A stretch of 64,000 nt of DNA from Gemmatimonadota bacterium (GCA_003169895.1 PNAE01000007.1:1004314-1068313); one strand, 5' to 3'; positions 13,320-38,100 are shown, counted from the stretch's first letter. Notes: generated by a model from the letters alone, not told the origin. A program made the numbers and translations.

Positions 13320-13340
13320 GGGTCCGCATATTACTACATC

Positions 13341-16438: not shown

Positions 16439-18430
16439 GTGACCCAGGTCGCCGCGCTCGTCCTGCTGGTGTTCGGCCTGCTGCCGATCGCCAACTGGAT
16501 ACCCGGCGGCCACGATGCGCCATGGTACAGCGAGCGCCTGGCCGGGTGGCTCAGCGGCGGCGGCATCGTGCTCGGCGTCGGCATCATCGCCGCGATCACG
16601 CTACGCCGGCGCCCCGGCTGGTGGCGACCGGGGCTCTGGGCTGGCATCGCTGCCCGCTGGCGCACCGGCAACCGTCGCGCCGATGCCGGCATCGCCCTGG
16701 CGGTGTTCGCCGTGTGCGCGCTGGTCGCGCGGTTCATCCTGTCGGCCAGGCCGCTGCTGATTGATGAGATCATCTCGCTGTACCAGGCACGCATTTTCGC
16801 CTCCGGCCGACTCTGGCTCCCCGCACCGGCATTCACCGAGTTCACCAGTGCGCTGCTCCTGCTCGACGGCCACGGCAAGGTCTACGGCCAGTTTCCCGCG
16901 GGGGGGCCGGCGATGCTCGCCATCGGCACATTGCTGCACGCCGAATGGCTGGTGGGCCCCACCGCAACGGCGATCGGCGCCTACCTGTTCGCGCGGTTGC
17001 TGCGCCGTCTCGACCTGCGGGACGGAACCGCGCTGGCGGCGCTCCTGTTGTATGCCTTCGCACCGTTCACCGTGTTTCTCGGCGGCTCGATGATGAACCA
17101 CGTCACCGAGACCACGTGGCTGCTCGGTGCGGCCCTCGGGCTATCGATTGCAACTGGCAGCGAACGCGCCAATCCCCGCGCTGCGTTCGTCATGGGGTTG
17201 GCATTCGGAATCGCCGCAGCCATTCGCCCGACCGATGCCGCGGCATTCGCGTTACCTGCGGGCGCATGGCTGCTCTGGCGGGCGCGTCGCGGCGTGTCCC
17301 ACGCGCGAGCCATGCTCCTGAGCGGTCTTGGCATCGCGATCCCGCTCACACTGCTGTTCGTCGTGAACGCCCACCAGACCGGCAATCCGTTCCGGTTCGG
17401 CTACGTCGAGCTGTGGGGGAAGTCGCACGAAATCGGATTCCATGCCGCACCGTGGGGAGAGGCGCACACGCCCGTGCGCGGCCTGGAGTTGATCAACCTG
17501 TATTTCCTCCGCCTGCAGGACTACTTCCTCGAGACCGCCGGGCCATCCCTGGTGTTCGCGACAGCCGCGCTCGGTCTGGCGCCGCGGCAGGCCGGAATGG
17601 ACCGCTGGGCGCTCGCTGGCGCAGCGTTCGTTGTGCTGGCGTATTGGGCCTACTGGCACGACGGATTCTACCTCGGACCCCGGTTCATGCTGCCTTTGGC
17701 GCCTTGGCTCGCACTGTGGACGGCGCGCTTGCCGGCGGTGATGGAGTGGCGGCGGATCTCGCCCGCAGTGATCCGAGGGGCCGTGATCGCGGGAAGCCTG
17801 GCGCTGCTGATCGGTGCCGTGACATCGGTCCCGCTCCGAGCAGCGCAGTATCGCCGCAGCAACCTGTCGAAGCGCTTCGACGTCGATTCGGCGGCCGCTG
17901 CCAACGGTGTTCACGACGCGCTGGTCCTGGTTCGCGAGTGGTGGGGCGGTCAGATGGTTGCGCGGATGTGGAGCCTCGGCGTGAGTCGAACGGACGCCGA
18001 GCACTACTACCGGTGGAATGATGCCTGCCGGCTGCAATCCGCGATCACCGCGACGGACCGTGATGCGAGCGGCGCCACTGGGCTCCAGCGTCGTCTCGCT
18101 CCGTTTCGGGCTGACTCAGCCCGCCTCGTCACCAATCGCGTGAATGGGGACAGCGCCGTGCGGGTTGTGCCGGGCGGACCGATCACGGGCGTCTGCCTGC
18201 GCCGGATGGCGGAGGACAGCGCCGGTTTCACAACGTATCCCAGTCTGCTGCTCGCTCGCGGCTATGGCAACGTTTACCTGCGCGATCTGCACGCGCGCGA
18301 CAGCGTGCTCCACCCGTTGGAGTCGCACCGCCCGATCTGGCTGCTGACGCAAGCGCCGGAGATTGGCGCACCGCTGCGCTTCGAGCGCATCCCGGTGGAT
18401 TCGATGCTGCGCGAGTGGCAGAATCAATGA
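16439..18430 (+). CDS. GT-C-fold-like polytopic membrane glycosyltransferase (ArnT/PMT_2-like), paralogue 1
   Basis: 663 aa with about 10-12 TM segments, an acidic first-loop motif LLIDEIISLYQARIF and a large C-terminal soluble domain. GTG 16439 abuts the TAG of the regulator gene. Confidence 0.75.
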   Translation: MTQVAALVLLVFGLLPIANWIPGGHDAPWYSERLAGWLSGGGIVLGVGIIAAITLRRRPGWWRPGLWAGIAARWRTGNRRADAGIALAVFAVCALVARFILSARPLLIDEIISLYQARIFASGRLWLPAPAFTEFTSALLLLDGHGKVYGQFPAGGPAMLAIGTLLHAEWLVGPTATAIGAYLFARLLRRLDLRDGTALAALLLYAFAPFTVFLGGSMMNHVTETTWLLGAALGLSIATGSERANPRAAFVMGLAFGIAAAIRPTDAAAFALPAGAWLLWRARRGVSHARAMLLSGLGIAIPLTLLFVVNAHQTGNPFRFGYVELWGKSHEIGFHAAPWGEAHTPVRGLELINLYFLRLQDYFLETAGPSLVFATAALGLAPRQAGMDRWALAGAAFVVLAYWAYWHDGFYLGPRFMLPLAPWLALWTARLPAVMEWRRISPAVIRGAVIAGSLALLIGAVTSVPLRAAQYRRSNLSKRFDVDSAAAANGVHDALVLVREWWGGQMVARMWSLGVSRTDAEHYYRWNDACRLQSAITATDRDASGATGLQRRLAPFRADSARLVTNRVNGDSAVRVVPGGPITGVCLRRMAEDSAGFTTYPSLLLARGYGNVYLRDLHARDSVLHPLESHRPIWLLTQAPEIGAPLRFERIPVDSMLREWQNQ

Positions 18431-20418
18431 CCCAGGTCGCCGCGCTCATCCTGCTGGTATTTGGTCTGCTGCCGATCGCCAACTGGATTCCCGGCGGCCA
18501 CGATGCGCCATGGTACGGCGAGCGCCTGGCCGGTTGGCTCAGCGGCGGCGGGATAGTGCTTGGCGTGGGCATCATTGCCGCGATCACGTTGCGCCGGAAT
18601 CCCGGGTTGTGGCGATCGGGGGTCTGGGCTGGCGTCGCCGCCCGATGGCGGACCGGCAACCGTCGCGCCGATGCTGGCATCGCCCTGGCCGTGTTCGCCG
18701 TGTGCGCCGTGGTGGCGCGACTGGTGTTTTCCGGCCGGCCGCTGCTGATCGACGAGATCATCTCGCTGTACCAGGCGCGCATCTTCGCCGCCGGCCGACT
18801 GTGGCTCCCCGCGCCGGCGTTCACCGAGTTCACCAGTGCGATGCACCTGCTCGACTGGAACGGCAAGGTCTACGGCCAGTTTCCCGCCGGCGGGCCGGCC
18901 ATGCTCGCCATCGGGACCTTGCTGCACGCCGAATGGCTGGTGGGTCCGGCTGCAACGGCGATTGGAGCGTACCTGTTCGCGCGATTGCTGCGCCATCTCG
19001 ACCTGCGGGACGGAACCGCGCTCGCCGCACTGCTGCTCTATGCATTCGCGCCGTTCACGGTGTTTCTCGGCGGTTCGATGATGAACCACGTCACCGCGAC
19101 TACATGGCTGCTCGGAGCCGCGCTGGGATTGGTGATCGCGACGTCGGACGCGCGGGCACGTCCACGGGCCGCGCTGGCGATGGGATTCGCGTTTGGCGTG
19201 GCGGCGACGATCCGTCCGACCGACGCCGCCGCGTTCGCGATCCCGGCGGCAATCTGGCTGATCTGGCGCGCCCGTGGCGGGTCGGCGCATGTCCGGGCGT
19301 TGCTGCTGAGCGGCGCGGGCGTGGCCATACCGATCGCGCTGCTGCTCTGGGTCAACCTGCATCAGACCGGCAGCCCCTTCCGCTTCGGCTACATCGAGAT
19401 GTGGGGGAAGTCGCACGAAATCGGATTCCACGCCGCACCATGGGGCGAGGCCCACACGCCGGCGCGCGGCATCGAGCTGATCAACCTTTACCTGCTGCGC
19501 TTGCAGGACTACTTCTTCGAGTCCGCCGGCCCCTCGCTGGTGTTCGCGACGCTGGCACTGGGCCTCACCATTCGCCGGCGCGCCTTCGATCGCTGGGCGC
19601 TGGCGGGGTCGGGCCTCCTGCTGGTGGCGTACTTCGCCTATTGGCACGACGGCTTCTACCTGGGTCCGCGTTTCATGCTGCCGCTGGCGCCGTGGCTCGC
19701 GTTGTGGACCGCGCGGCTGCCGGCGGTCCTGGAGGAGCGGCACGTCGCGCCGGCGATCGTGCGCGCAACGGTAGTGGCCGGCGTCACGGCGCTGCTCCTC
19801 GGCGCGGTGGTGGCGGTGCCATTGCGGGCGCGGCAGTATACGAACGGCATGTTGTCGATGCGCTTCGACGTCGATCGCCTTGCCGCCGCGAACGGGGTGC
19901 ACGACGCGGTGGTACTGGTGCGCGAAAGCTGGGGCGGGCAGCTGATGGCCCGGCTCTGGGGTCTGGGTGTCAGTCGGACCGATGCCGAGCATCTCTATCG
20001 AACCAACGATGCGTGTCGCCTGGAACTGACGATCAGTGCCACCGAACGTGACGGCGGCGGGTCCGATGAGCTGCAGCGGCGACTCGCACCCTTCCATGCC
20101 GATTCTGCCCGGGTGAGGGCGGATCGTACGCTGCCCGACACCACGGTGCGGTTCGCGCCCGATGGTCCGCGGGCAGAGCTGTGCCAGCGGCGACTCATCG
20201 AGGACCGCTCCGGCTTCACGCTGTATCCGCCGTTGCTGCTCGCTCGCGGCGCCAACAACATCTTTCTCCGCGACCTGCACGCCCGCGACTCGCTGGTGCT
20301 CGTCCGGTATCCGCAGCGTTCCATCTGGTTGCTGATGAAGGATCCCGCGGTCGGGAGTCCGCTGCGATTCGAGCGGGTTTCACCGGATTCGATGTTGCGC
20401 GAGTGGCAGAGGGATTGA
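18427..20418 (+). CDS. GT-C-fold-like polytopic membrane glycosyltransferase, paralogue 2 (tandem duplicate)
   Basis: About 75-80% identical by eye to 16439-18430, and nearly identical over the first ~230 aa. ATG 18427 overlaps the upstream stop (ATGA). Confidence 0.75.
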   Translation: MTQVAALILLVFGLLPIANWIPGGHDAPWYGERLAGWLSGGGIVLGVGIIAAITLRRNPGLWRSGVWAGVAARWRTGNRRADAGIALAVFAVCAVVARLVFSGRPLLIDEIISLYQARIFAAGRLWLPAPAFTEFTSAMHLLDWNGKVYGQFPAGGPAMLAIGTLLHAEWLVGPAATAIGAYLFARLLRHLDLRDGTALAALLLYAFAPFTVFLGGSMMNHVTATTWLLGAALGLVIATSDARARPRAALAMGFAFGVAATIRPTDAAAFAIPAAIWLIWRARGGSAHVRALLLSGAGVAIPIALLLWVNLHQTGSPFRFGYIEMWGKSHEIGFHAAPWGEAHTPARGIELINLYLLRLQDYFFESAGPSLVFATLALGLTIRRRAFDRWALAGSGLLLVAYFAYWHDGFYLGPRFMLPLAPWLALWTARLPAVLEERHVAPAIVRATVVAGVTALLLGAVVAVPLRARQYTNGMLSMRFDVDRLAAANGVHDAVVLVRESWGGQLMARLWGLGVSRTDAEHLYRTNDACRLELTISATERDGGGSDELQRRLAPFHADSARVRADRTLPDTTVRFAPDGPRAELCQRRLIEDRSGFTLYPPLLLARGANNIFLRDLHARDSLVLVRYPQRSIWLLMKDPAVGSPLRFERVSPDSMLREWQRD

Positions 20419-20421: not shown

Positions 20422-21162
20422 ATGCAGCATGAACAGTTTGTTGCCCATGCTCGGCTCGAAGACCGGCACTGGTGGTTCACCGGCCGGCGCGCGATCCTCA
20501 CTGCGCTGATCCATGCGGTCGCGCCGCCCGGGGCGGGGGTAGCGCTGGTGGATGTGGGCTGCGGCACGGGTGGCAACGCCGCCGCGCTGGCGCGCGAGTA
20601 TCGGGTGCTGGGGCTCGATCCGTCGGCCGATGCCGTTGCGCTGGCGCGGTCGCGCTTTCCTGCCGTGCAGTTCATCCAGACCGACGATCCGGAAGCAGGT
20701 CGCGCCCATCTCGCCCATGGCGGCGTGGTGATCATGACCGACGTGCTGGAGCACGTGGCCGATGATCGCGACCTGCTCGCCCGCGTGATTGCCGTGCTGC
20801 CGGCGGGTGGCCACCTGATCCTCACCGTCCCCGCTGATCCCGGGCTCTGGAGCCGCCACGACACCCAGTTCGGCCACCATCGCCGGTATCGCACCGAGGA
20901 CTTTCGGGCGCTCTGGCATGACGCACCGGTCGAGGAGCGGTTGCTGACGCCATTCAACTCCCGCCTCTGGCCGGTGATCGCCACAATCCGGCGCTTCACG
21001 CACGACAACGGGAGCGATCTGCAGATACCCACGGGCCCCTTGAATGCGGTGCTCCACCGGATCTTCGCCGGCGAAGCGAAGGCGCTCGTCCGGGCGATCG
21101 ATCGTAACACGCCGGTATTTTCGCGCGGCGTGAGTCTCGCCGCGGTGCTGCGCAAGCTGTGA
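20422..21162 (+). CDS. Class I SAM-dependent methyltransferase
   Basis: SAM motif I VDVGCGTGGNA and a Methyltransf_11/23-like layout; 246 aa. Confidence 0.85.
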   Translation: MQHEQFVAHARLEDRHWWFTGRRAILTALIHAVAPPGAGVALVDVGCGTGGNAAALAREYRVLGLDPSADAVALARSRFPAVQFIQTDDPEAGRAHLAHGGVVIMTDVLEHVADDRDLLARVIAVLPAGGHLILTVPADPGLWSRHDTQFGHHRRYRTEDFRALWHDAPVEERLLTPFNSRLWPVIATIRRFTHDNGSDLQIPTGPLNAVLHRIFAGEAKALVRAIDRNTPVFSRGVSLAAVLRKL

Positions 21163-21902
21163 GCGACCTCATCCTGGTTGTGCCGGTGTACAACGAGGCG
21201 TCGCGCCTCGATCCGGCGCCGTGGCTTGAGTTCCTTGCCGCCGATCGATCCCGGGCGCTCATTTTCGTGGACGACGGCAGCGGGGATGGCACGCTCGCTG
21301 TGCTCGAAACCATCCGGGCGGCCGCACCGGCGCAGACCAGCATTCTCGGGCTGCCCGAGAACCGTGGCAAGGCGGAGGCAGTGCGGCACGGGATGCTGCA
21401 GGCGCTGGCTGCGACGGTTCGTTACGCCGGCTTCATCGACGCCGACCTGTCGGCGCCGCTCAGCGAGGTATCGCTGTTGCAGGTGGAGCTTGACGCTCGT
21501 CCGGCGGCGTCAGCGGCGTTCGGCTCGCGAGTCAAGCTACTGGGCCGCCAGATCGTGCGATCGGAGCGGCGCCACTACCTCGGCCGGATCTTCGCCACCT
21601 GCGCGTCGTTCGCATTGTCGCTGCCGGTCTACGATACCCAGTGCGGTCTGAAGTTGTTCCGCAACACGCCGGACGTTCGGGCCGCTTTTGCGACGGCCTT
21701 CCGCAGCAAGTGGATCTTCGACGTGGAATTGCTGGCCCGCCTCGCCGACTCGGCTGGCGCCGATGTGGCGTCGCGCATCCGCGAGGTTCCGCTGCAGCAC
21801 TGGGAAGAGAGAGGCTCCAGCCGGCTGCGCATGCGGGATTTCCTCTTGGCACCGTTTGAGCTGGCACGGATTCGACGACTGTACCCGTACCGCCGGCGGT
21901 AA
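21159..21902 (+). CDS. GT2 glycosyltransferase, polyprenol-phosphate sugar synthase-like (ALG5/DPM1-like)
   Basis: VVPVYNE..FVDDGSGDGT..IDADL..CGLKLF motifs. The start overlaps the upstream stop (GTGA). Confidence 0.85.
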   Translation: MSDLILVVPVYNEASRLDPAPWLEFLAADRSRALIFVDDGSGDGTLAVLETIRAAAPAQTSILGLPENRGKAEAVRHGMLQALAATVRYAGFIDADLSAPLSEVSLLQVELDARPAASAAFGSRVKLLGRQIVRSERRHYLGRIFATCASFALSLPVYDTQCGLKLFRNTPDVRAAFATAFRSKWIFDVELLARLADSAGADVASRIREVPLQHWEERGSSRLRMRDFLLAPFELARIRRLYPYRRR

Positions 21903-21905: not shown

Positions 21906-22241
21906 TCAGCCATTCTTCGGGCTTGGGGTGCGGGGAGTGGCCAGCGCCAATGCCTGGGCCAAGCGCGTCAGGTCGCGTTGCATGCGCCGGATGGTGGCTG
22001 CGGTCGTCGCGAAGTGGAAGAGCGCAAAGATGATAAAAAAATAGAACATCAGGTCGGCGCCGCGTCCAACACCGAGGCGAGCAGCGACACGGTTGGTGAA
22101 CTCGGGATTGAGAATCAGCGCGACGCCGATCGCGGCGAGGCCGAGGTAGGTCACCCGATCGCCGCTGGTACTGCGCAGGCGGAAGATATAAATCGCGAAC
22201 AGTGCCAACAGGACGAGAAGAACAATCTGGGACGGACGCAT
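21906..22241 (-). CDS. Small 4-TM membrane protein (DUF2304-like GT2 partner)
   Basis: 111 aa, hydrophobic, located immediately downstream of a GT2 gene on the same strand. The family assignment is from memory of DUF2304 and is not computed. Confidence 0.65.
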   Translation of the reverse strand: MRPSQIVLLVLLALFAIYIFRLRSTSGDRVTYLGLAAIGVALILNPEFTNRVAARLGVGRGADLMFYFFIIFALFHFATTAATIRRMQRDLTRLAQALALATPRTPSPKNG

Positions 22242-22245: not shown

Positions 22246-22962
22246 CTACCTCGTTTTGGCGATCAGTAAGTCCCACAGCACGCTGACGGCGTCAATCAGC
22301 CCCTGACCTTTGGAGAGCGAATAGGGCGTGTAGGAGACGCGAACCGGAACCTCCTGGTAGCGTAGTCGCAGCCGCGCCACTTCGGCCTGAATCTCCGAGG
22401 CATGAGCCATGCGATCCTGCTGCAGGACGAGTCGGCTCAACACATCGCAACGAAAGCCGCGCATGCCATTGTGGGTGTCAGTGAGCTTCAGTCCTGTCGT
22501 CCACCGTGCCAGACGGGTGGCAAGGCGCAGCAACACCTTGCGACTTGCGGGGATGCTGCCGAGACCGTCCGGTTCAAGGAACCGGGATCCCAACGTGACA
22601 TCGGCGGTATCGCTCGCTAGCGGCGCGATTAGTCGAGGCACCGCGCTGGGGTCGTGCTGTCCGTCGGCATCGAACGTGACGACGAAGCGCATCGCGGGAT
22701 CGCGACTGGCGTATACAAATCCCGTCGCCAGTGCGGCGCCTTGCCCAACATTCACCGCGTGGCGCAGCACCCACGCACCGGCGGCCAGCGCACAGGCAGC
22801 CGTATCGTCTTCCGATCCGTCGTCGACAACCACAACGTGCCAGTGATCGTCGACCAGGCGGGCCACCACCGTGCCGATGGTCCGTGCTTCCTGATAGGCT
22901 GCAATGACGATCCAGGTCGCCCGCCGGACGAGCTGGTCTGCCGGATTCACGGATGAGGCCAT
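22246..22962 (-). CDS. GT2 glycosyltransferase (polyprenol-phosphate glycosyltransferase-like)
   Basis: Motifs VIAAYQE..VVVDDGSEDDT..FDADGQH. Start set at ATG 22962 (MASSVNP..); the upstream 124 codons of the ORF are an Arg/Gln/His-rich extension. Confidence 0.85.
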   Translation of the reverse strand: MASSVNPADQLVRRATWIVIAAYQEARTIGTVVARLVDDHWHVVVVDDGSEDDTAACALAAGAWVLRHAVNVGQGAALATGFVYASRDPAMRFVVTFDADGQHDPSAVPRLIAPLASDTADVTLGSRFLEPDGLGSIPASRKVLLRLATRLARWTTGLKLTDTHNGMRGFRCDVLSRLVLQQDRMAHASEIQAEVARLRLRYQEVPVRVSYTPYSLSKGQGLIDAVSVLWDLLIAKTR

Positions 22963-22995: not shown

Positions 22996-24609
22996 ATGCG
23001 AGATCCACGCCCGCTGGTTGTCCTCGTCCTGCTGCTGCTCGTGGTGCTCGTTGCGCGCAGATGGATCCGCGCCGTACCTGCTCTGCCGCCGTCGATGCGA
23101 CTGCGAGGGGCGGTTGCGGTCGCGGCAGCAGCGTTCACGATGGCTCTCACTGTTTGGGTTTGGGGTGGGCTGAGGGCTCCAGCGGTCGTCGATGACGAGG
23201 CAGCGTACGTGCTGCAGGCCGACCTCTTTGCTCACGGCCGCTGGACCCGCCCGAGTCCGTTGCCATCCTTGTCGTTCACGCAACCAGCTGTGCTGGTGAC
23301 GCCGGTTCTGGCGCCCAAGATGCCACCAGGTCACGCGCTGTTGCTTGCCCCAGGAGCCCTCATCGGCCTGCCGGGACTCATCCCGGTCCTGCTCAGCGGC
23401 GCAACGGCAGCGCTGCTCGTGCTGCTGGTGTGCGAAGTCCAGTCGCCGGCCGTCGCCGTGCTGACGGTGATTGTGTGGCTCACGTTCGCCGGCCAGATGC
23501 GTTGGCGTGCCTCATACTTCTCGGAAATTACTACCGGCATGCTTTGGCTGCTGGGGTGGTGGGCCCTGCTGCGCTGGCGACAGACGCGACGCACCGGGTG
23601 GTTGCTGCTCCTTGCTACGGCCATCGGCTGGGGTGCCATCACCCGACCACTCACCATGCTCGCTTTCGCGCTTCCAATTGGTATTGTCGTTCTGCGCGAC
23701 GTGATCCGCGGGAAGCACTGGCGACAGTTGGCCGGTGCGATGGCCGTAGGTGTTGCCTGCCTCGCGTTGCTACCAATCCAGAACTACGAAGTGCTCGGAA
23801 ACTGGCGGGAGAGTCCGCTGGCGCTGTACACGAGCGAATACATGCCGTTTGACCGAATTGGATTCGGGTTTGACTCTACACCGCCGTCGCTTGGGCTGCC
23901 GGACGACCTGCAAGCAGCGCAGTTGCCGATCATGGCCCGCCATCGGGAGCATCAACCGAGTGCGTTACCACGGGTCCTTGCCACCCGGCTCTGGGAACTT
24001 CGCATGTCGACGTTCGGTGGGTGGCGGGTACTCTGGATTCCCGCGGCGATGGTCGGCGCCGCAATCATCGGTGCATCCGGATGGTTCGCGATCGCGTCGG
24101 GCTTGACGCTTTATTTGGCCTATCTGCTGTACGCCCACGAGCCACACTGGACCGTGTACTATCTCGAGGCGGCGCCGGCGGCCGCCTTCGTCTGCGCGAC
24201 AGGCCTGGCTTGGCTGCTGGCACGTGCTACGGCGGCTCGGCGTGAGCTGCCACTTGCTACCGCCGCAATGGCGGCGCTTGCGATCCTGGCGGCCGGCTGG
24301 CGGGAATTGCACACGGCCCGAACGTTCCGTGCCGGGGCGCAGAAGCCGTTTCGCGCGTTGGAACATGACGTGGCCGCGACAGGCATTCCACACGCCCTCG
24401 TCTTCATTCGTAACTCTGTCGGCCACGACCCGAGCGTCAATTTCGTGCGCAACGTGGCCGACGCTGCGCGCGCGCCAATACTGACCGCATATGATCGAGG
24501 TCCAGCGGACAAGGCCCGCACGATGGCTCATTATCCCGACCGTGCGGTGTTGTACTGGGATGGCGACCTTACGCATCTCGTCGGCCCGACGCGCGACACG
24601 CTTCCATGA
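22996..24609 (+). CDS. GT-C-fold-like polytopic membrane glycosyltransferase
   Basis: 537 aa with more than 10 TM segments, an acidic first-loop motif VVDDEAAYVLQADLF and a KMPPGH loop. Confidence 0.7.
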   Translation: MRDPRPLVVLVLLLLVVLVARRWIRAVPALPPSMRLRGAVAVAAAAFTMALTVWVWGGLRAPAVVDDEAAYVLQADLFAHGRWTRPSPLPSLSFTQPAVLVTPVLAPKMPPGHALLLAPGALIGLPGLIPVLLSGATAALLVLLVCEVQSPAVAVLTVIVWLTFAGQMRWRASYFSEITTGMLWLLGWWALLRWRQTRRTGWLLLLATAIGWGAITRPLTMLAFALPIGIVVLRDVIRGKHWRQLAGAMAVGVACLALLPIQNYEVLGNWRESPLALYTSEYMPFDRIGFGFDSTPPSLGLPDDLQAAQLPIMARHREHQPSALPRVLATRLWELRMSTFGGWRVLWIPAAMVGAAIIGASGWFAIASGLTLYLAYLLYAHEPHWTVYYLEAAPAAAFVCATGLAWLLARATAARRELPLATAAMAALAILAAGWRELHTARTFRAGAQKPFRALEHDVAATGIPHALVFIRNSVGHDPSVNFVRNVADAARAPILTAYDRGPADKARTMAHYPDRAVLYWDGDLTHLVGPTRDTLP

Positions 24610-25298
24610 GCGGTGCCCTGACCGAAAGACCCGCGCCGGCTCCGAAGGCTCTCATCTTCGATGTCGACGGCACGCTGTATCATCACACTCCCGTGCGATT
24701 GCGTCTGGCCGGGCAGCTGCTCGCTCAGCTGATTCGCCGGCCACGCTCCGGCACACGCACCATTCGGGCGCTCCGGGCATATCGCCGTGCGCTGGAAGAT
24801 CTGCGCAACACGCAGGAGAGTGACAGCGTACTCGACGTGTCGGTCGAACTACGCCGACTCGCATCGCGAGCGACCGGAATTCCAGTCGATGAGATCGAGC
24901 GTTACGTGAATGCGTGGATGTTGCGGGCGCCGCTGCCATTGCTGGCGCGCGCGCGCCGTGCCCACGTCGTCGAGGTGTGTGCTGCGGCCCGTTCGCGCCG
25001 GATCCAGCTCGCCGCCTGTTCCGACTATCCCGCCGCCGCGAAGCTCGATGGCCTCGGCCTGAGCGGATTCTTTGATGTCGTGGTCACCGCGCAGGATGCC
25101 GATGTCGGCCGTGTCAAGCCGCATCCGCGCGGCCTGCACATTGTCCTCGCGAGGCTTGGGGTCGCTGCACATGATGCCTGGTATGTCGGCGACCGGGCGG
25201 ATGTGGATGACGGAGCGGCACGCGCGGCGGGTGTCACCTCGGTCATCCTGTCGCGGCGCTATACCATGGCCCATCTCCTGCAGGACATCAGCCGTTGA
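24606..25298 (+). CDS. HAD-superfamily hydrolase (phosphatase-like)
   Basis: Motif I FDVDGTL, motif II ACSD, and motifs III/IV K..GDRADVD. ATGA overlap with the upstream gene. Confidence 0.8.
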   Translation: MSGALTERPAPAPKALIFDVDGTLYHHTPVRLRLAGQLLAQLIRRPRSGTRTIRALRAYRRALEDLRNTQESDSVLDVSVELRRLASRATGIPVDEIERYVNAWMLRAPLPLLARARRAHVVEVCAAARSRRIQLAACSDYPAAAKLDGLGLSGFFDVVVTAQDADVGRVKPHPRGLHIVLARLGVAAHDAWYVGDRADVDDGAARAAGVTSVILSRRYTMAHLLQDISR

Positions 25299-26275
25299 TG
25301 ACCAATGCCACCATATCGACGCCTGCGCGGGGCACGCTCGCTGGTCACCTGGCGATCGCCCGGCTGGATCACTGGTCGAAGAATGTGTTCGTGCTTCCCG
25401 GCGTTGTTGCCGCCCTCGCACTGAACCCCACCGCAAATACTAGCGGTCTTGCCTCACGCTTCGTTCTGGGCGTGCTGTCGGTGTGCCTGATCTCCTCGAG
25501 CAACTACACTCTCAACGAAATCGTCGATGCGCCGTTCGATCTTTATCACCCCGACAAGCGCCATCGCCCGGTGCCGAGCGGCCGGGTCAATCTTCCACTC
25601 GGCTACTTGCAGTGGTTAGTACTTGCGGCCGCCGGTGCGGCACTCGGACTCAAGATCGGTGCGGCCTTCTCGGCCTCGGTCGCGGCGCTCTGGGTGATGG
25701 GATGCGGGTATAACCTGCGGCCATTGCGGACCAAGGATGTACCGTACCTGGATGTACTCACCGAAGCCATCAACAATCCGCTCCGGCTGCTGGCGGGTTG
25801 GTACATTGTCGATGCGCGGGTGTTTCCGCCGGCGACGCTGCTCCTGAGCTACTGGATGGTGGGCTGCTACTTCATGGCGATCAAGCGATTCGCCGAATGC
25901 CGGCAGCTCGGCAACGGGCCGCAGCGGTCGGCGTACCGCCGGTCACTGGCGTTTTTCACGCCCGAACGACTGCTGACCACGGTAATGTTCTACGGAGCAG
26001 CGGCGATGCTGTTCTTTGGCGCGTTCATCATGCGCTATCGCCTCGACCTGATTATTTCGTTCCCACTGGTGGCGCTCGTGATGGCGATGTATCTGCGGCT
26101 GGGGTTCAGGCCGGGAAGTGCCGCGCAACATCCCGAGAAGCTCTATCGCGAACCGGCACTGATGGTCGCGGTATGCGTCTGCGCGCTGGTTATGGGCCTG
26201 CTCTTGTTCGTGCACGTGCCATTGCTCGATACCGTGTTCCCGCCGACTGTTCCGACCGCAGACTGGACTCGTTGA
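25295..26275 (+). CDS. UbiA-family prenyltransferase, decaprenyl-phosphate phosphoribosyltransferase-like
   Basis: About 8-9 TM segments. The Asp-rich motif NYTLNEIVDAPFD followed by HPDKRHRPVPSGRV resembles the DPPR-synthase subfamily pattern (NDxxDxxxD..HP.KR.RP.A.G). Confidence 0.8.
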   Translation: MMTNATISTPARGTLAGHLAIARLDHWSKNVFVLPGVVAALALNPTANTSGLASRFVLGVLSVCLISSSNYTLNEIVDAPFDLYHPDKRHRPVPSGRVNLPLGYLQWLVLAAAGAALGLKIGAAFSASVAALWVMGCGYNLRPLRTKDVPYLDVLTEAINNPLRLLAGWYIVDARVFPPATLLLSYWMVGCYFMAIKRFAECRQLGNGPQRSAYRRSLAFFTPERLLTTVMFYGAAAMLFFGAFIMRYRLDLIISFPLVALVMAMYLRLGFRPGSAAQHPEKLYREPALMVAVCVCALVMGLLLFVHVPLLDTVFPPTVPTADWTR

Positions 26276-26277: not shown

Positions 26278-28005
26278 CTATTGCCGGGCGGCCGCGCGCG
26301 TCGCCGGTCGAACCACTTCGAGAACGCCCGCGCAACCGGGAACGCTCTGCAGGCGGTTCGGCGGAATCGTGGTGTCGGCCGGTACTGCGACAACGTACGT
26401 AACGCTCAAGGCGTCCAGAAACTTCGAGCGCTCATCACCGGATAGCTGGGGCCAGTTGTGCGGCAGCTCAAGGCCGATGCGGTCGAGATAGTAGCCCACG
26501 GCATACGCCGCCACGTCGTCGGTGGCCATCAATACCCGTGCGGTGCGCGGTAGGCAGCGGTCAAGATCTCTGATCGGGACACCTGAGATCAGCCCATCAC
26601 GTCCGCCGCGGGAAATGTGTTGCAAGTCCATGAAGTCGGGATGCTGGTGGACAACCTGTTCGGCGTAGAGAGACTTCTTCCACCCCAGTGCGGCGCCGAT
26701 CAGCAGCGGCACCATGGCCATCCTCCGGAATCGGTGCACTGGCGATGTCACCAGCAGTACCAGGCTCCAGAAGGATATGGCGAGGAAAATGGGGGCGAAG
26801 TACCGCAGTTCGAAAAATCCGGTAGTCAATGGACCGGCGAGCTGTGCAATGAACGCCGCGACGATGACGAGCGTCACGCCAACCTGTCGGCTGGTCCATC
26901 GAGCCAAGTTCCCCGGTTGCGTGCGAGTCCACAGGGCAAAGACAGCAAGCAGGGCGGGAGCGAATGCATAGCGCGTGGTGCCGCGCCAGAGCGAACTGGT
27001 GATGCCGGGCAGGTTGTGCGTCACACGCGCCAGCCATTCCGCACCTGCTTCGCGCAAGGTCGGCGGAAACACCGGGTACCAGTTATTCACGAAATTGATG
27101 GCGGCACTCTTCGCGACCATCGCGTTGTCGCTGGCGAACGCAACTCCGAAGGCCACCCGAGAATAGAGCATCCACGGCAGGAGCATCAACGCGACGGCGA
27201 TACCGTAACCTGTCAGCCAGCGAAGCACCCCGCCGCGCTGCCAGGCGAACGGAAGGCCCAACCCGAGGACCACGACGATCGGCGCGCTGTCGAAACGCGT
27301 CATCCAGAGCAATCCAGCCAGCCCACCGACGATCAGCCCGGTTCGAAAACCTGTCTCGCGCAGCCGGGTCAGTGCGATGCCGATGGCGACATAGCAGAGC
27401 AGTGCCGCCGCCATGGACCTCCCGCCGAGTATGTCGTCGAGGAATGGTCCGTAACTGAGGAGTGCAGCCCATATCGCAACCGCCGCGAAGTGCCTGCGTC
27501 CGCGTGCGTGAACGAGCGGACGCAACATGATTGCGATGCAGGGCAGGAGCCCAACGGTGAACACCGCCGCGGTGATGATACCCAGCCACGGACCCAAGCG
27601 AAGCAGGCGTGAGACCAGGAAGAGAATCAGTGGCCACACCGGCGGGAAACTGTCGGCGGCATCGGTGAGGTACTGGTACTGTCGGACCAATGGAATATGG
27701 TATGGTATCGATCCGAACGACCGCGCCAGCAGCAGATAGGCCCAGCTGTCAGGGGTGAGCGGCGGGCGTACGCGAGTGGAGATCAGACCGAGCAAGAGCA
27801 GCAGCCCTGTAGCCAACATGATGATGGCCGCAATGCTCGACCAGCCATAGAGCCGTAAGGTGCTCACCATGCGTAGCAGGCGGCGCACGCGGGAAGTTCG
27901 CGTCACGGAGTCAGCGACAAATCGCCCTCGCGCCGAAGATGACAGGAATGTCAATCGCCCGACGGGAAGTATCGTGCGCACCGTCCGGCGTGTCGAGGGC
28001 CGCAA
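26278..28005 (-). CDS. GT-C-fold-like polytopic membrane protein
   Basis: 575 aa with more than 10 TM segments, a first-loop motif TPDSWAYLLLARSF and SFPPVWPL. An alternative start at ATG 27870 (MVSTLRLYGW..) is possible. Confidence 0.65.
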   Translation of the reverse strand: MRPSTRRTVRTILPVGRLTFLSSSARGRFVADSVTRTSRVRRLLRMVSTLRLYGWSSIAAIIMLATGLLLLLGLISTRVRPPLTPDSWAYLLLARSFGSIPYHIPLVRQYQYLTDAADSFPPVWPLILFLVSRLLRLGPWLGIITAAVFTVGLLPCIAIMLRPLVHARGRRHFAAVAIWAALLSYGPFLDDILGGRSMAAALLCYVAIGIALTRLRETGFRTGLIVGGLAGLLWMTRFDSAPIVVVLGLGLPFAWQRGGVLRWLTGYGIAVALMLLPWMLYSRVAFGVAFASDNAMVAKSAAINFVNNWYPVFPPTLREAGAEWLARVTHNLPGITSSLWRGTTRYAFAPALLAVFALWTRTQPGNLARWTSRQVGVTLVIVAAFIAQLAGPLTTGFFELRYFAPIFLAISFWSLVLLVTSPVHRFRRMAMVPLLIGAALGWKKSLYAEQVVHQHPDFMDLQHISRGGRDGLISGVPIRDLDRCLPRTARVLMATDDVAAYAVGYYLDRIGLELPHNWPQLSGDERSKFLDALSVTYVVAVPADTTIPPNRLQSVPGCAGVLEVVRPATRAAARQ

Positions 28006-28220: not shown

Positions 28221-28325
28221 TCGACCCTGCAAACGTAAACCTCGACCCGGTCGACTCGAACCTCGACGCTGAAAACACGACCCTCGACCCTCTCGACTCA
28301 AACCTCGATCCTGCCGACTTTATTT
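28221..28325. repeat. Five phased 21-nt direct repeats built from TCGAnCC heptads
   Basis: Units tcgaccctgcaaacgtaaacc / tcgacccggtcgactcgaacc / tcgacgctgaaaacacgaccc / tcgaccctctcgactcaaacc / tcgatcctgccgactttattt. They lie directly 3' of the minus-strand stop at 28320-28322, with no inverted partner. Confidence 0.7.
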
Positions 28326-30251
28326 CCGATCCGGCCCACCGTGTGGCGGTGGCGGCGGCGGCGGCGGCGCGAACAGCGCGATCCCCGGTTGTCCCGGTCC
28401 GACGTCCCATTGCACCACTGTACGCCAGTCCGCCGCCCACGCCGGCGGCGTTCCTGCGTGGGGCCAGATCTGCAGCAGCAGGCAAGGGGGGCCGCGGCGC
28501 TCCATGAATCGCGCCGATGCATTGGTGACGCCAACAGCCCGAAAGCGCGCGTCACTTCCCGCATGGCGCACCAGTACCATCGCGCCGTATTCCCAGGCAT
28601 CCGGCCAGGTGTGCATGCCGACGTCGGCGCAGCCGCTGCTGGCGATCCTCTTCGCGACATCCACGTACGGTCGGGCGAGCACCGGGTCGTACATGAAGTA
28701 GCCGAGGTTTCGCGGGGTCGCCAGAATGCTGGGTCGCGGGGTGATCGCCCTGCCAGGGAGCGTCACCAGTGGGCGGGTGTAGTTGAAGAGCGCCTCCGGA
28801 AGCGCGGCCAGCGTGAGCACAACCAGCACGCCGCGCCGTGCCGCCAGCGGAAGGCGCTCAAGCCACAGCGCAACCCACGCCAGCGCCAGTACGAACAGCG
28901 GCGTGTGCAATCGGCTGTGGTAGCTCTGCCACTTCAACTGGGCGCAGAAGATCACGAAGCCCGTGACGACCGCGACGGGGAACCAGAGCCGGACGCCTGT
29001 TGATCTCGCCACGACCAATCCGATCAGGCAGCCGAACACCAGAAGTAGATGGAGCGGATTCGGAGCGGATTCCTCATGAGTGTTCCACGGCGTCGGAATG
29101 AAGTGCGGGTTCCATGTGGTGCGCTGATCATCCGGATTGGCCCCGATCGCACGCGAAACCGTTGCCACGCCATTCGCGACCGCTGCATTGATCCTATCTG
29201 ACGGCGTACCGAAATGGAGCGACAGGTTTCGCAGCACGTTCCCGATTACCTGATTCGGAGCCTTCGTGGTCATGGGAATGTTCCAGACCGGGTCACCACG
29301 AACGTCGCCGAAAACAGCCTGGTTGCGGGCCAGCTGCGGCCCAGCGATCAGCAGGCTAGCCGCCAGCAAAGCCGCGACCAACGAACCAGCCGCGCGACTC
29401 CGTCCTGTCGAAGCAAGCAGCACGATCGCTGGCAACAGCGCCACTCCACCGAACAATACGGCAGTCTGTTTGGTGCCGACTGCCAACCCGAATGACAGCG
29501 CGCAGAGGGTCAGGTCCGTGGAGCGCTGTGGTGTCGAGAGCAAGCGATAGCCGAACGCGCACGCCAGCACCGCCCAGCACGCCGCCGTGACATCAGTCTG
29601 GGTGCCGCTGGCTTGTGCGACCGCCATCGGTAACGTCGCCACGAGCGCCGCCGCCATCGTCGCTGCGGCCCGTCCGCCGCCGAGCGCGCGCGCGAGCAAT
29701 GCCGCGCCGCCACACGCTCCGGCAAACCCGAGCCACTGCACGAAGTTCGCGAAGCGATCCCCGCCGCTGAGTAGTTGGAACTGCAGCACGGCGTATTCCG
29801 ACCACGACGGCATGAACAGTTGCCGGGTGTTCCAGGTCGCGAACGGGTGCAGCGAGCCCTGCTGGATCCACCGTTCCACTCGCACGAGATGGTAGGTGAG
29901 GCCATCGTACGAGTTCGGCGCAGCGATGTACGCAACCAGCCCAGTCAACGCCAACAACAGGACGACTGGCACCAGTTCCTCGATGTGCGACCGCTCGCTG
30001 GCGTGAGGTGCGACACCGATGGAAGCCGTCGATCGCCGCGCGACGACGAGTGCAAGCAGCGTTCCCACGGACCACACGACGGCACTTCCAATCGCGGTGA
30101 GCGCTCCGGCGCCGGACTGGACCTCCGTGCCCACCGCAATCGTAACGCCAAACACGATCAACGCTGCGGCGGCCGACTCGAGCCACTCTCTCCCGGTTCG
30201 CCGGAACGCGAGCGTCCACGCGAGCAGGCTCAGCAACGGAAGAAGGATCAT
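28320..30251 (-). CDS. GT-C-fold-like polytopic membrane protein with poly-Pro C-terminus
   Basis: Start set at ATG 30251 (MILLPLLSLLAW..), overlapping the upstream stop (ATGA). Loop motif NSYDGLTYHLVRVERW and more than 12 TM segments. The C-terminal ..APPPPPPPPHGG is encoded by a (CGG)n tract at ~28346-28370. Confidence 0.7.
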   Translation of the reverse strand: MILLPLLSLLAWTLAFRRTGREWLESAAAALIVFGVTIAVGTEVQSGAGALTAIGSAVVWSVGTLLALVVARRSTASIGVAPHASERSHIEELVPVVLLLALTGLVAYIAAPNSYDGLTYHLVRVERWIQQGSLHPFATWNTRQLFMPSWSEYAVLQFQLLSGGDRFANFVQWLGFAGACGGAALLARALGGGRAAATMAAALVATLPMAVAQASGTQTDVTAACWAVLACAFGYRLLSTPQRSTDLTLCALSFGLAVGTKQTAVLFGGVALLPAIVLLASTGRSRAAGSLVAALLAASLLIAGPQLARNQAVFGDVRGDPVWNIPMTTKAPNQVIGNVLRNLSLHFGTPSDRINAAVANGVATVSRAIGANPDDQRTTWNPHFIPTPWNTHEESAPNPLHLLLVFGCLIGLVVARSTGVRLWFPVAVVTGFVIFCAQLKWQSYHSRLHTPLFVLALAWVALWLERLPLAARRGVLVVLTLAALPEALFNYTRPLVTLPGRAITPRPSILATPRNLGYFMYDPVLARPYVDVAKRIASSGCADVGMHTWPDAWEYGAMVLVRHAGSDARFRAVGVTNASARFMERRGPPCLLLQIWPHAGTPPAWAADWRTVVQWDVGPGQPGIALFAPPPPPPPPHGGPDRK

Positions 30252-31921
30252 GGAACGGAGTCTCGGTGAGTTGTCGTGTGAGTCCCCGACGCGGCAGCGG
30301 CCCGCAACCGCTCCACCCGCTCCCGTTCGGATTGGAACTCGGTCTGGCCCAGGGCCAGCGCCAGAGCGGCATACCGGTCGGCCAGGTCCCACTGGTGCTC
30401 AGTGAGCAGGCACTCGATCAACTTGGCCCGGAGTGACGGAGCCTCCGGCTCCAGCCGCACGCCCGCGGCGAGAACCGGAACCGCGGCCGCACATTGTCCG
30501 TCAGTCCGAAGGAACTGGCCCAAACGTTCGTTGACCTCGTAATCATGCGGCCAGAGTTGCAGGGCATGCCGGAGGTTGGCGATTGCGCGAGGGTGGTCAC
30601 CCGCGCCCTCCCAATACTCGCCGGCGCCCTTCCACGCGCGATATGCCCGCGGCGCATCGTCGGTGAGATCGCTGTAGAAGCGGCGCTGGGTGCTCCAGGT
30701 CGGCACCCGGGTTGCGCTGCGAACACCAAGCACAACCCCCCAGATAACAAGTGCCGCAATCGGGATCCGTACACCCCAGACGTCTCTCGTCTCTCGTCTC
30801 TCGTCTCTCTTGTTGAGCATCGCGCCGAGAGCGATCGCCAGTCCGATGCTTGGCAGGAACAACACCCGCTCCGCCATGACAATCCCGGTTGGCACGAGCA
30901 GGTTGGCGACCGGTGCGAGTGTCACCGCCGCCCACCAAAGCCCGAAGGCGGCGGTTGGTGCGCGGCGTCGCGCAAGCGCAAATAGCGCGATGTATCCGAT
31001 CAGAAGAATCGCGCCGGCGATGTGCCGGGCAGCAACTGGCCCGCCGACCGGAATGCCGGGCGGCCCGTAGTCGGCCTGCAGATGCAGCGGCCAGAACAGC
31101 AGACGCACGTACTCGGGAATGACGCCCAGGAACGTGACGGCGCGCGCTCCGGGCCCAAGTCCGCGGAGCGCCATGGCCGGCGTATCGCCAGCGAAACCGG
31201 TCAGCACGCCGGCACGCACGACGAGCAGCAGCAGCGTAAGCGCCGTCACCGGGACCAGCAGCCGGGCGCGCCTCGCCACTCGGGCGATGCGGATGCCCTT
31301 CTCTCGTCCCTCGTCTCTCGTCTCTCCTGGCGCCAGCAGCCATTCGGCCCCGCCAAGGAGCAGGGGCGCCATGAACCCCTGTTCCTTGGCAGCTATACCA
31401 ATGGCTACTATAGCGAGAAGCGCCAGAACAACACCGGCCGTCACACCGGTACGCCGCGCGTCCAGGTAGATCGATGTGGCAGTCAGCAGTGCCAGTGCAG
31501 TCCACAGCTCCGCCTGACCCACGCCGTTGGCCACCACTTCCACGTGAACGGGGTGCACCAGGAACAGCAGCGTCGCGGCGAGGGCGGGCAGTTCCCGCAC
31601 CGCAAGCCGCCGGAGCAGTGCGTAGAGCGCCAGCCCGCAGCCGAGGTAACCGAGCAGCAGTGTGAGATGAAAAATCCACGGTGCGCCCTGACCCAGGCGC
31701 CATTGCAGCGCAAATCCGGCCACGGTCAGCGGGCGCCACAGCGTGCCGAGCCAGTATGGCGATGCCGCGATGGTATGCCACTGGGTGGGATCGGTGACCC
31801 GCGAATTCTGCACGATGGCCGGCAGGTCGTCATACACGAAGCCGTTGCGAAGGCTCAGCCCCATCGCCAGCGCTACCGCGAGCGCGCAGGCGGCGAACAC
31901 CTCGCGTCGTCGCAACCTCAT
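30248..31921 (-). CDS. TMTC-like membrane protein: GT-C-type TM domain (DUF1736-like) plus C-terminal TPR repeats
   Basis: First-loop motif GFVYDDLPAIVQNSRV, about 9-11 TM segments, and a TPR-like C-terminus (..AYRAWKGAGEYWEGAGDHPRAIANLRHALQLWP..). It contains two in-frame heptad-repeat patches. Confidence 0.8.
   Translation of the reverse strand: MRLRRREVFAACALAVALAMGLSLRNGFVYDDLPAIVQNSRVTDPTQWHTIAASPYWLGTLWRPLTVAGFALQWRLGQGAPWIFHLTLLLGYLGCGLALYALLRRLAVRELPALAATLLFLVHPVHVEVVANGVGQAELWTALALLTATSIYLDARRTGVTAGVVLALLAIVAIGIAAKEQGFMAPLLLGGAEWLLAPGETRDEGREKGIRIARVARRARLLVPVTALTLLLLVVRAGVLTGFAGDTPAMALRGLGPGARAVTFLGVIPEYVRLLFWPLHLQADYGPPGIPVGGPVAARHIAGAILLIGYIALFALARRRAPTAAFGLWWAAVTLAPVANLLVPTGIVMAERVLFLPSIGLAIALGAMLNKRDERRETRDVWGVRIPIAALVIWGVVLGVRSATRVPTWSTQRRFYSDLTDDAPRAYRAWKGAGEYWEGAGDHPRAIANLRHALQLWPHDYEVNERLGQFLRTDGQCAAAVPVLAAGVRLEPEAPSLRAKLIECLLTEHQWDLADRYAALALALGQTEFQSERERVERLRAAAASGTHTTTHRDSVP
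30781..30808. repeat. Four perfect CGTCTCT heptads inside the CDS (encode ..RDERRETRD..)
   Basis: cgtctct x4 at 30781-30808, with no inverted partner nearby. Confidence 0.75.
31298..31326. repeat. Degenerate CGTCTCT heptad patch inside the CDS (encodes ..GETRDEGRE..)
   Basis: cttctct cgtccct cgtctct cgtctct at 31298-31325. Confidence 0.6.
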
Positions 31922-33794: not shown

Positions 33795-33810
33795 TGGCAC
33801 CGCTGTTGCA
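33795..33810 (+). promoter_or_regulatory. Sigma-54 promoter motif upstream of the first pilin gene
   Basis: TGGCAC (33795-33800) - cgctg - TTGCA (33806-33810) exactly matches the TGGCAC-N5-TTGCW consensus. It lies 86 nt upstream of ATG 33896. Confidence 0.7.
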
Positions 33811-34282: not shown

Positions 34283-34407
34283 ACTGAAGCACTGCTGAGT
34301 ATCGATCGCGGGGCGTTCGCCGGCCGCTCCAGGCTGACGGGCGCCCCGGGTCGCGAAATGGATCGGAATGTTCAAGACGGATGGAAACTCCGGTGGAGGG
34401 TGACGCC

Positions 34408-36860: not shown

Positions 36861-36866
36861 ATCGGT

Positions 36867-38087: not shown

Positions 38088-38100
38088 GGAACCCCACGTC

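Follow-up and report, generated by a model that had tools for sequence, protein, structure and literature searches.

A 64,000-nucleotide stretch of DNA from an uncultured soil-dwelling Gemmatimonadota bacterium (GCA_003169895.1, PNAE01000007.1:1004314-1068313), referred to below as the window, carries a short operon whose last gene encodes a UbiA-family membrane protein. As judged from its sequence, this protein most probably works like a phosphoribosyl pyrophosphate (PRPP):polyprenyl-phosphate phosphoribosyltransferase, and its gene follows that of a HAD phosphatase. The window has a G+C content of ~66%, the nearest homologues of its proteins are encoded by Gemmatimonadota metagenome-assembled genomes (MAGs), and the locus is also present on contigs of MAG GCA_003169745.1 and of a JGI metagenome.

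A first-pass annotation had described a three-gene GT-C/HAD/UbiA operon at positions 22996-26275, and three same-strand open reading frames (ORFs) with overlapping ends were found exactly there. The stop codon of the GT-C gene and the start codon of the HAD gene share the sequence ATGA (4-nt overlap), and the UbiA start codon overlaps the HAD stop codon by a single nucleotide (TGATG), as had been noted. Both peptides quoted earlier from the UbiA protein, NYTLNEIVDAPFD and HPDKRHRPVPSG, are present in its translation. The three genes are as follows.

22996-24609, plus strand: GT-C fold glycosyltransferase of 537 aa (GT-C537), first gene of the operon (weak Pfam PMT_2 match, AlphaFold2 model, PDB fold matches)
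24606-25298, plus strand: HAD-IA phosphatase of 230 aa, predicted 5′-phosphatase acting on polyprenyl-P-ribose-5-P (Pfam and NCBIfam HAD matches, motifs)
25298-26275, plus strand: UbiA-superfamily phosphoribosyltransferase-like membrane protein of 325 aa, or 326 aa if the start is at 25295 (Pfam, NCBIfam, PDB, Foldseek, residues)

The UbiA protein and its HAD partner

The UbiA protein matched the Pfam family PF01040 (UbiA) with E 3.5e-21. Its top NCBIfam model was PRK08238, a HAD-UbiA fusion family of 482 positions, of which the UbiA part was matched (E 4.6e-24), followed by three decaprenyl-phosphate phosphoribosyltransferase models (E 5e-23 to 3e-16). The best other prenyltransferase model reached E 7e-10, and models for chlorophyll synthase, heme O synthase and UbiA scored from E 1e-7 to 4e-4. 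A sequence search of the PDB returned the mycobacterial enzyme Rv3806c (8j8j) with E 3.3e-8 and, marginally, a chlorophyll synthase (E 1.4e-3). The AlphaFold model, built on 19 family members (mean confidence, pLDDT, 87.7), conforms to the UbiA fold, a nine-helix membrane bundle with a cytoplasmic cap; its best Foldseek match was PRPP-bound Rv3806c (8j8j, template modelling (TM) scores 0.75/0.83, root-mean-square deviation 3.0 Å), with archaeal UbiA homologues ranking behind (0.66/0.74). All tblastn matches on plasmids were either relatives within the same clade (35-41% identity) or annotated DPPR synthases.

In Rv3806c, Mg2+ is bound by N73 and D77 and the diphosphate by R22, K87, R90, K143, Y138 and K208, while K28, Y70, Y157 and K191 contact the 5′-phosphate or lipid phosphate, and N73 and Q135 contact the ribose, Q135 at O3; UbiA prenyltransferases do not share the phosphoribose sites among these (PMC10994848). 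The same positions were compared using a HMMER alignment, a family alignment and a MAFFT alignment with five other phosphoribosyltransferase-type proteins. Eleven of the 13 positions that bind PRPP, Mg2+ or lipid phosphate are kept in the UbiA family of the window, most of them without variation: R22, K28, Y70, N73, D77, K87, R90, Y138 and K191 (Rv3806c numbering; K191 corresponds to K196 of the window protein) are invariant, and positions 143 (R144/K146) and 208 (R/K215) are basic. Within the Mg2+ motif N-D-x-x-D-x-x-x-D, N73, D77 and D81 are invariant and D74 is conservatively replaced by Glu. Since curated models, PDB sequence, fold and ligand residues all point in the same direction, the protein is a probable phosphoribosyltransferase. 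An identity as a quinone, heme or chlorophyll prenyltransferase was rejected, because those models and structures scored worse than the phosphoribosyltransferases, by 10 or more orders of magnitude, and the PRPP residues are kept. The annotation of the protein as a polyprenyl-phosphate phosphoribosyltransferase type, as opposed to a menaquinone, ubiquinone, heme O or chlorophyll type, is thus supported by NCBIfam, PDB, Foldseek, plasmid tblastn and residue data alike.

The HAD protein matched Pfam HAD families (E 8e-20), and its catalytic motifs (D19xD21, S139, K171 and D196/D201) do not vary among 32 orthologues, which also keep many cap residues. It is 38% identical to the HAD protein of a UbiA-HAD-GtrA operon on the Rhizobium johnstonii plasmid pRL10, and an orthologous HAD gene directly adjoins UbiA in 22 of 57 related loci, across phyla. 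Because the HAD protein is a conserved and catalytically intact partner of UbiA, the role of 5′-phosphate remover suggested for it earlier is a reasonable one.

Relatives of the UbiA protein are abundant. More than 4,000 of 8,000 candidates scored matched at E≤1e-5, the best 120 homologues being 57-87% identical. In a set with a single genome for each GTDB species, a relative is encoded in at least 585 stretches; these do not include the source species, and the closest is 65% identical. The best 80 (54-65% identity) come from Gemmatimonadota, Acidobacteriota, Myxococcota, Armatimonadota, Planctomycetota, Chloroflexota, Actinomycetota, Nitrospirota and other phyla. None was found in a phage collection. 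Within this large family, the window protein is a member of an uncharacterised sister clade of Rv3806c-type enzymes. Some longer homologues (ORFs of 416-716 aa) were considered as HAD-UbiA fusions and rejected, as their N-terminal extensions show no similarity to HAD and most likely result from ORFs called too long.

ORFs were called in all related loci and clustered, and neighbours were counted wherever UbiA was flanked on each side by 3 kb or more, in 57 loci. A polytopic protein (at least 8 hydrophobic segments, at least 380 aa) is encoded no more than two genes from UbiA in 40 of them and no more than 10 kb away in 52, and the gene order GT-C/HAD/UbiA was seen again in several phyla. With phosphatases, GtrA-type proteins and GT-Cs as recurrent neighbours, the gene content resembles the pattern expected of a cassette for a lipid-linked sugar donor. 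Canonical phosphoribosyltransferase genes are placed beside a PAP2 gene on a Marivivens plasmid (L093), beside genes for a PHP-domain protein, an LPG-synthase-type membrane protein and a GT-C on a Halostagnicola plasmid (L095), and beside a GT39 gene in Legionella; neither DprE1 nor DprE2 was present in the displayed ±8 kb around these three genes. Three unrelated phosphoesterase types (PAP2, PHP and HAD) therefore adjoin UbiA-type phosphoribosyltransferase genes in Marivivens, Halostagnicola and Rhizobium pRL10 (L089), which suggests that a 5′-phosphatase has been recruited repeatedly and non-orthologously in different lineages.

The mycobacterial epimerases DprE1 and DprE2 had been reported as missing from the 64 kb, and two approaches bore this out. 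A Pfam scan of ~45 ORFs covering the whole window contained no FAD_binding_4 (VAO-type FAD), classical SDR or GalE-type epimerase domain. The M. tuberculosis DprE1 and DprE2 sequences used as tblastn queries were validated by NCBIfam equivalog models (794.6 and 426.7 bits, above cut-off); neither gave a match in the window at E<0.01. When the same queries were run against 83 independent related UbiA loci with flanks of up to 10 kb, DprE1 had no match in any of them and DprE2 just two weak generic SDR matches. Epimerases are optional in pentofuranose systems, with a GalE-like SDR leading to xylofuranose and DprE1/DprE2 to arabinofuranose (Kelly et al. PNAS 2024, PMC11127046). As judged from 64 kb of the genome, unepimerised ribofuranose is the most probable sugar. 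The first-pass annotation had proposed polyprenyl-phosphate-ribofuranose as the donor and called it unusual; the donor is likely, but such a donor had already been demonstrated in Citrobacter youngae O1 (PMC11127046).

A putative glycosylation island beside type IV pilin genes

The wider context of the operon had been missed at first: it forms part of a ~17-kb GT-C island, flanked by a sigma-54 two-component system on one side and type IV pilin genes on the other. Seven genes of the island are GT-C-like, two encode GT2 lipid-sugar synthases and one a methyltransferase. The surrounding features are listed by position.

13071-16438, plus strand: PAS histidine kinase and NtrC-type sigma-54 response regulator, PilS/PilR-like by position (Pfam, NCBIfam)
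16439-18430 and 18427-20418, plus strand: two tandem paralogous membrane proteins of 663 aa, putatively GT-C-like (weak NCBIfam LA_3751/LA_3752 matches, DE motif)
20422-21162, plus strand: SAM-dependent methyltransferase (Pfam Methyltransf_23/12/25/11)
21159-21902, plus strand: second GT2, 247 aa (Pfam Glycos_transf_2)
21906-22241, minus strand: DUF2304 small membrane protein, of the Pfam family of the mycobacterial PpgS partner (PF10066, E 2.3e-19)
22246-22962, minus strand: PpgS-like GT2, polyprenyl-phosphate sugar synthase (NCBIfam NF058614, E 2.6e-61, 207 bits, below the cut-off of 370)
26278-27870, minus strand: polytopic membrane protein of 530 aa, candidate GT-C for the UbiA product (hydrophobic segments, orthologue linkage)
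28320-30251, minus strand: GT-C (PMT_2) protein of 643 aa (Pfam PMT_2, E 3.9e-7)
30248-31921 and 31918-33633, minus strand: two GT-C proteins with C-terminal TPR, TfpW-like architecture (Pfam PMT_2, DUF6056, TPR)
33795-33809, plus strand: sigma-54 -24/-12 promoter consensus TGGCACCGCTGTTGC (exact consensus match, ~87 nt upstream of the pilin start)
33896-34282 and 34887-35273, plus strand: two paralogous genes for Ser/Thr-rich type IV major pilins, flanking a pilin-like gene (Pfam N_methyl)
36861-41702, plus strand: pilM, pilN, pilO and pilQ secretin (Pfam PilM_2, PilN, PilO, Secretin)

The kinase and regulator genes are thus followed by those for the two 663-aa proteins, the methyltransferase, a GT2, the DUF2304 protein with the PpgS-like GT2, and GT-C/HAD/UbiA; after UbiA come the convergent gene for the 530-aa protein, the PMT_2 GT-C and the two GT-C/TPR proteins, and then the divergent pilins, minor pilins and pilMNOQ.

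Gene content of the island differs among relatives. One Gemmatimonadota locus (L086) has the same regulator pair, the 663-aa paralogues, the GT2/DUF2304/GT2 group and a GT-C537 orthologue, followed by pilins and pilMN, with no homologue of HAD, UbiA or the 530-aa protein in the island. The L088 locus encodes HAD, UbiA and 530-aa proteins that are 77%, 87% and 73% identical to those of the window, together with a GT-C537 orthologue of 52% identity. In L091, HAD/UbiA is replaced by a GT2 with a C-terminal transmembrane domain, next to which lies a relative of the 530-aa protein with 45% identity. Given these differences in content among L086, L088 and L091, the HAD/UbiA pair behaves as an exchangeable donor cassette within a hypervariable glycosylation island. 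The genes at ~22-32 kb have a G+C content at third codon positions (GC3) of 0.72-0.76, compared with 0.79-0.87 in the flanks, which is consistent with a variable and possibly exchanged part of the island. The kinase/regulator arrangement was also observed in L086, L087 and L091, the L087 kinase being a weak 6TM_PilS match.

The sole family match of the 663-aa paralogues was a weak one to the Leptospira LA_3751/LA_3752 putative glycosyltransferase family. Both paralogues (16439-18430 and 18427-20418) contain a conserved L-I-D-E motif, and they are kept in L086, L088 and L091. In L086 the two are separated by an inserted PIN/PhD toxin-antitoxin pair (positions 5364-6064), a further sign that the locus is an insertion hotspot.

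The order of regulator pair, island and pilins was found both in the window and in L086. The sigma-54 site at 33795-33809 is the single exact -24/-12 consensus (TGGCAC-N5-TTGC) in the 64 kb, lies ~87 nt before the start codon of the first pilin gene, and fits the NtrC-type regulator encoded upstream (15056-16438) acting as PilR. A specific PilS/PilR assignment was not obtained from NCBIfam, where the matches were of the generic NtrB/NtrC type. The two major pilins, of 128 aa each, have near-identical N-terminal halves and Ser/Thr-rich C-terminal halves, and their best NCBIfam match was the Myxococcus-type PilA. An atypical pilin-like ORF (34381-34800) is located between their genes.

In P. aeruginosa, pilins are modified with D-arabinofuranose (Araf) by TfpW, which is encoded beside pilA and is characterised by a DDx motif in periplasmic loop 1, a Y-X6-P-F-X7-P motif and a C-terminal TPR (bioRxiv 10.1101/2020.04.19.049825). 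The two GT-C/TPR proteins, whose genes diverge from the pilin gene that starts at 33896, have DD after the first transmembrane segment (residues 31-32 and 41-42) and the motifs Y271-X6-P-L-X7-P and W279-X6-P-A-X7-P; the spacing is that of TfpW, with F replaced in both proteins and Y replaced by W in one. By this layout they may be regarded as TfpW-like.

A predicted lipid-linked ribose pathway and its alternatives

From the folds, the conserved ligand residues, the gene linkage and the local absence of epimerases we infer a pathway with a probable substrate, product, flipping step, GT-C user and acceptor. HAD and UbiA would form a two-enzyme cassette making polyprenyl-phosphate-beta-D-ribofuranose at the cytoplasmic face of the membrane, in which UbiA would move ribose-5-phosphate from PRPP onto polyprenyl phosphate, giving polyprenyl-P-ribose-5-P, and HAD would then strip the 5′-phosphate to leave polyprenyl-P-ribofuranose. 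The lipid-linked pentose would be flipped and used outside the cytoplasm by one of the GT-Cs of the island, with a type IV pilin, or a glycan on the pilin, as acceptor. The enzymatic core, a UbiA phosphoribosyltransferase and a HAD 5′-phosphatase yielding a polyprenyl-P-pentofuranose, is quite likely. The full sequence from a lipid-linked ribose donor through an island GT-C to a pilin-type acceptor is reasonably likely.

Several findings weigh against parts of this pathway, and one group of them concerns the GT-C that would use the product. GT-C537 had only a weak PMT_2 match in Pfam; its AlphaFold model (pLDDT 87) had significant PDB matches that were all GT-Cs (ArnT, ALG9/ALG12, PglB, AftA, Pmt4 and EmbA/B/C), and D67-E68 after the first transmembrane segment are invariant in the family alignment. 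Orthologues of GT-C537 occur in L086, L087 and L091 loci that lack HAD/UbiA, and always beside the PpgS-like GT2/DUF2304 pair, so GT-C537 may use a donor other than the UbiA product. The position of a GT-C gene ahead of HAD/UbiA was correctly described at the outset, but GT-C537/HAD/UbiA as one functional unit is weakened by these loci.

The 530-aa protein (26278-27870) and the TfpW-like GT-C/TPR proteins are equally good candidate users. The gene for the 530-aa protein is convergent with UbiA, the stop codons being 2 nt apart, and encodes at least 8 hydrophobic segments. Among close relatives the protein co-occurs with HAD/UbiA, being present in L088 and absent from L086. Strict co-occurrence with UbiA was rejected, since relatives of 45-50% identity, among them the one in L091, are found in loci without UbiA. 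Distant relatives had weak PMT_2 matches. The protein itself had no Pfam, NCBIfam or PDB match, was matched by none of the hidden Markov models (HMMs) made for six families of neighbours in related loci, and had no significant hhalign score against the GT-C537 family, and its direct assignment to a GT-C family was rejected on these searches. In some distant relatives (P0274, P0281, P0283 and P0336), of ~790 aa, the polytopic part is preceded by a fused GT2 domain at the N-terminus, an architecture that would imply that a lipid-sugar synthase and its GT-C are combined in a single polypeptide.

A second group concerns flipping. No MATE, GtrA, SMR or LPG-synthase-type Pfam family was found among the window ORFs and no unannotated small hydrophobic ORF in the 16-34 kb region, and tblastn of the window with GtrA, EamA and LPG-synthase transmembrane proteins of related loci gave no match.

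The identity of the acceptor is also disputed by part of the data. Since the island sits between a sigma-54 two-component system and the pilin genes and is variable in content, the pilin, or a glycan built on it, is the most likely acceptor, with somewhat better than even chances. A prepilin motif was found near UbiA in just one of the 83 other UbiA loci, and a general link between the UbiA family and pilins was rejected, such motifs being present near UbiA only in the window lineage and that one locus; the pilin association is lineage-specific. The enzymology could therefore be as proposed while the acceptor is lipopolysaccharide, exopolysaccharide or an S-layer glycoprotein, the proximity of the pilins being incidental. 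In other phyla, the UbiA/HAD cassette is located away from pilins, in clusters of polysaccharide type that contain Wzx-like, GT4, GT2 and acetyltransferase genes, or with BNR/Ig surface proteins, and seven GT-Cs far exceed the single enzyme that suffices in Pseudomonas. Against such an acceptor stand the retention of the island between sigma-54 regulators and pilins in a second Gemmatimonadota genome (L086), the sigma-54 promoter consensus that precedes the pilin gene, and the DD, proline motif and TPR layout of the last two GT-Cs, divergent from that gene. This alternative is the less probable one, though it deserves serious consideration.

The sugar could instead be the ordinary one, with DprE1/DprE2 encoded elsewhere in the genome making polyprenyl-P-Araf and the TfpW-like GT-Cs placing Araf on the pilin, as in P. 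aeruginosa group IV. The absence of epimerase genes covers 64 kb of the genome and does not by itself settle the identity of the sugar; the P. aeruginosa D-Araf genes are unlinked to pilA/tfpW (bioRxiv 10.1101/2020.04.19.049825), and GT-C/TPR proteins of TfpW-like layout adjoin the window pilin gene. However, in known Araf systems DprE1/DprE2 are clustered with the phosphoribosyltransferase, for instance in PsPA7_6246-6249 and in the Araf loci of the survey by Kelly et al. (PMC11127046), and the 83 UbiA-family loci gave no DprE1 homologue within 10 kb and only the two generic SDR matches for DprE2. The Araf pathway is therefore improbable.

The last group of adverse findings concerns the enzymes. 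Scores of the UbiA protein (59.7-84.9 bits) are far below the NCBIfam equivalog cut-offs (207-474 bits), its identity to Rv3806c is just ~24-28%, and its clade has no characterised member, a literature search for one, or for the Rhizobium UbiA-HAD-GtrA operon, having returned nothing beyond Kelly et al. 2024. In the pocket, Q135, the ribose O3 contact, is an invariant Gly in the window clade and in its Rhizobium/Rhodobacter relatives, where annotated DPPR synthases carry Q or N; Y157, which contacts the 5′-phosphate, is an invariant Asn (N160) in the clade; and the replacement of D74 by Glu is systematic. Y157 is Phe in some mycobacteria and of moderate importance only (PMC10994848). The E74/G135/N160 substitutions are common to proteins of 35-41% identity encoded on plasmids of Rhizobium, Rhodobacter, Sphingobium and others and are absent from the annotated DPPR synthases of Marivivens, Legionella and Halostagnicola; the altered pocket could possibly mean a donor or product other than plain ribose-5-phosphate. 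The HAD protein did not match the PRK08238 fusion model among its best 25 NCBIfam matches, its nearest PDB relatives are generic HAD-IA proteins, and it is probably no orthologue of the phosphoribose phosphatase domain that has been characterised. That UbiA is not PRPP-dependent at all, using another donor or prenylating a small molecule while HAD acts on an unrelated phosphate ester, would accord with the sub-threshold scores, the consistent differences at positions 74, 135 and 157 and the lack of a clade member of known activity, but is very unlikely given the largely invariant ligands of the diphosphate, 5′-phosphate and lipid phosphate at phosphoribose sites that UbiA prenyltransferases do not share (PMC10994848), the first rank of phosphoribosyltransferases by both fold and HMM, and recurrent neighbours that follow the logic of a lipid-linked sugar donor.

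Relation to known pentofuranose systems

The proposed HAD/UbiA pathway is closest to that of C. youngae O1/O2, in which ORF15, whose HAD phosphoribose phosphatase and UbiA-type synthase parts are fused, converts PRPP and prenyl phosphate to prenyl-P-ribofuranose, the MATE protein ORF14 is the presumed flippase, and the GT-C ORF12 (GT136) adds alpha-ribofuranose in the periplasm (Kelly et al. PNAS 2024, PMC11127046). Both systems couple a UbiA-type phosphoribosyltransferase to HAD, are linked to GT-Cs, lack DprE1/DprE2 and have polyprenyl-P-ribofuranose as the (here predicted) donor; the fusion family PRK08238 is also the best NCBIfam model of the window UbiA. Unlike in Citrobacter, HAD is encoded in the window by a gene of its own, translationally coupled and of the HAD-IA type, and the HAD portion of the fusion model was not among its listed matches; the window encodes neither a MATE protein nor any other flippase that could be recognised; and its UbiA protein falls in another, uncharacterised clade (E74, G135, N160). 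The Citrobacter genes form an O-antigen side-chain locus, whereas the window has a pilin-linked island of seven GT-Cs.

The M. tuberculosis pathway comprises Rv3806c (DPPR synthase), Rv3807c (PAP2), DprE1/DprE2, Rv3789 (GtrA-like) and the Emb/Aft GT-Cs. Rv3806c is nearest to the window UbiA by both structure and sequence, and in each case several GT-Cs would use polyprenyl-phosphate donors outside the cytoplasm. The window differs in having HAD in place of PAP2, no DprE1/DprE2 or GtrA, and Gly and Asn for Q135 and Y157.

Arabinosylation of P. aeruginosa group IV pilins depends on pilA-tfpW and PsPA7_6246-6249 (bioRxiv 10.1101/2020.04.19.049825). The window resembles this system in its GT-Cs with DD, aromatic-X6-P-x-X7-P and TPR beside a major pilin gene and in its predicted PRPP-derived lipid-pentose pathway. 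In contrast to P. aeruginosa, donor genes and GT-Cs are in one island without DprE1/DprE2 or GtrA, and instead of a single multifunctional TfpW there are seven GT-C-like proteins and two further lipid-sugar synthases. The operons of Rhizobium johnstonii pRL10 (UbiA-HAD-GtrA) and Rhodobacter (HAD-UbiA-GtrA), which are annotated and as yet uncharacterised, have the UbiA signature E74/G135/N160 at 35-37% identity; they differ in gene order and include a GtrA-type candidate flippase that the window lacks, and in pRL10 the HAD is orthologous to that of the window and no GT-C is adjacent.

Since the chemistry of the pathway was demonstrated in 2024 (PMC11127046), it presents no new principle. What is new here is the separate HAD gene, the lack of a recognisable flippase, the different UbiA clade and the hypervariable, pilin-linked island of seven GT-Cs. 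If correct, the assignment would provide a function for a family that is very common, strongly conserved (identities of 55-65% among Acidobacteriota, Gemmatimonadota, Myxococcota, Armatimonadota, Planctomycetota and Chloroflexota) and now labelled '4-hydroxybenzoate polyprenyltransferase' or 'UbiA family protein', and would carry the pathway for lipid-linked pentofuranose beyond enterobacterial O antigens into uncultured soil phyla. Pilin glycosylation with PRPP-derived pentose, known just from Pseudomonas and a few relatives, would then be older and more elaborate than thought. A bolder proposal, in which up to seven GT-Cs build an extracytoplasmic glycan on the type IV pilin from three polyprenyl-phosphate donors, fed by the uncharacterised UbiA/HAD clade that occurs in at least 585 species from soil and sediment phyla, is doubtful; if true, it would be the first case of pilin ribofuranosylation and a strain-variable, pilin-anchored counterpart of mycobacterial arabinan/mannan assembly. 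Pilus glycosylation in Pseudomonas blocks pilus-specific phages (bioRxiv 10.1101/150227), and a hypervariable island beside pilin genes would therefore fit a phage-driven arms race.

Two further features of the window were noted away from the island. The Peptidase_M1 gene at 57591-59711 (minus strand) and the MacB/FtsX-type permease gene at 59016-61046 (plus strand) are long, high-GC3 ORFs that overlap by ~700 nt, so at least one start codon is probably mis-called. The region 50800-53500 has the lowest G+C content of the window (0.62) and short ORFs only, among them a 161-aa fragment (51297-51782) matching the C-terminal part of amidohydrolases, and may be a decayed gene region.

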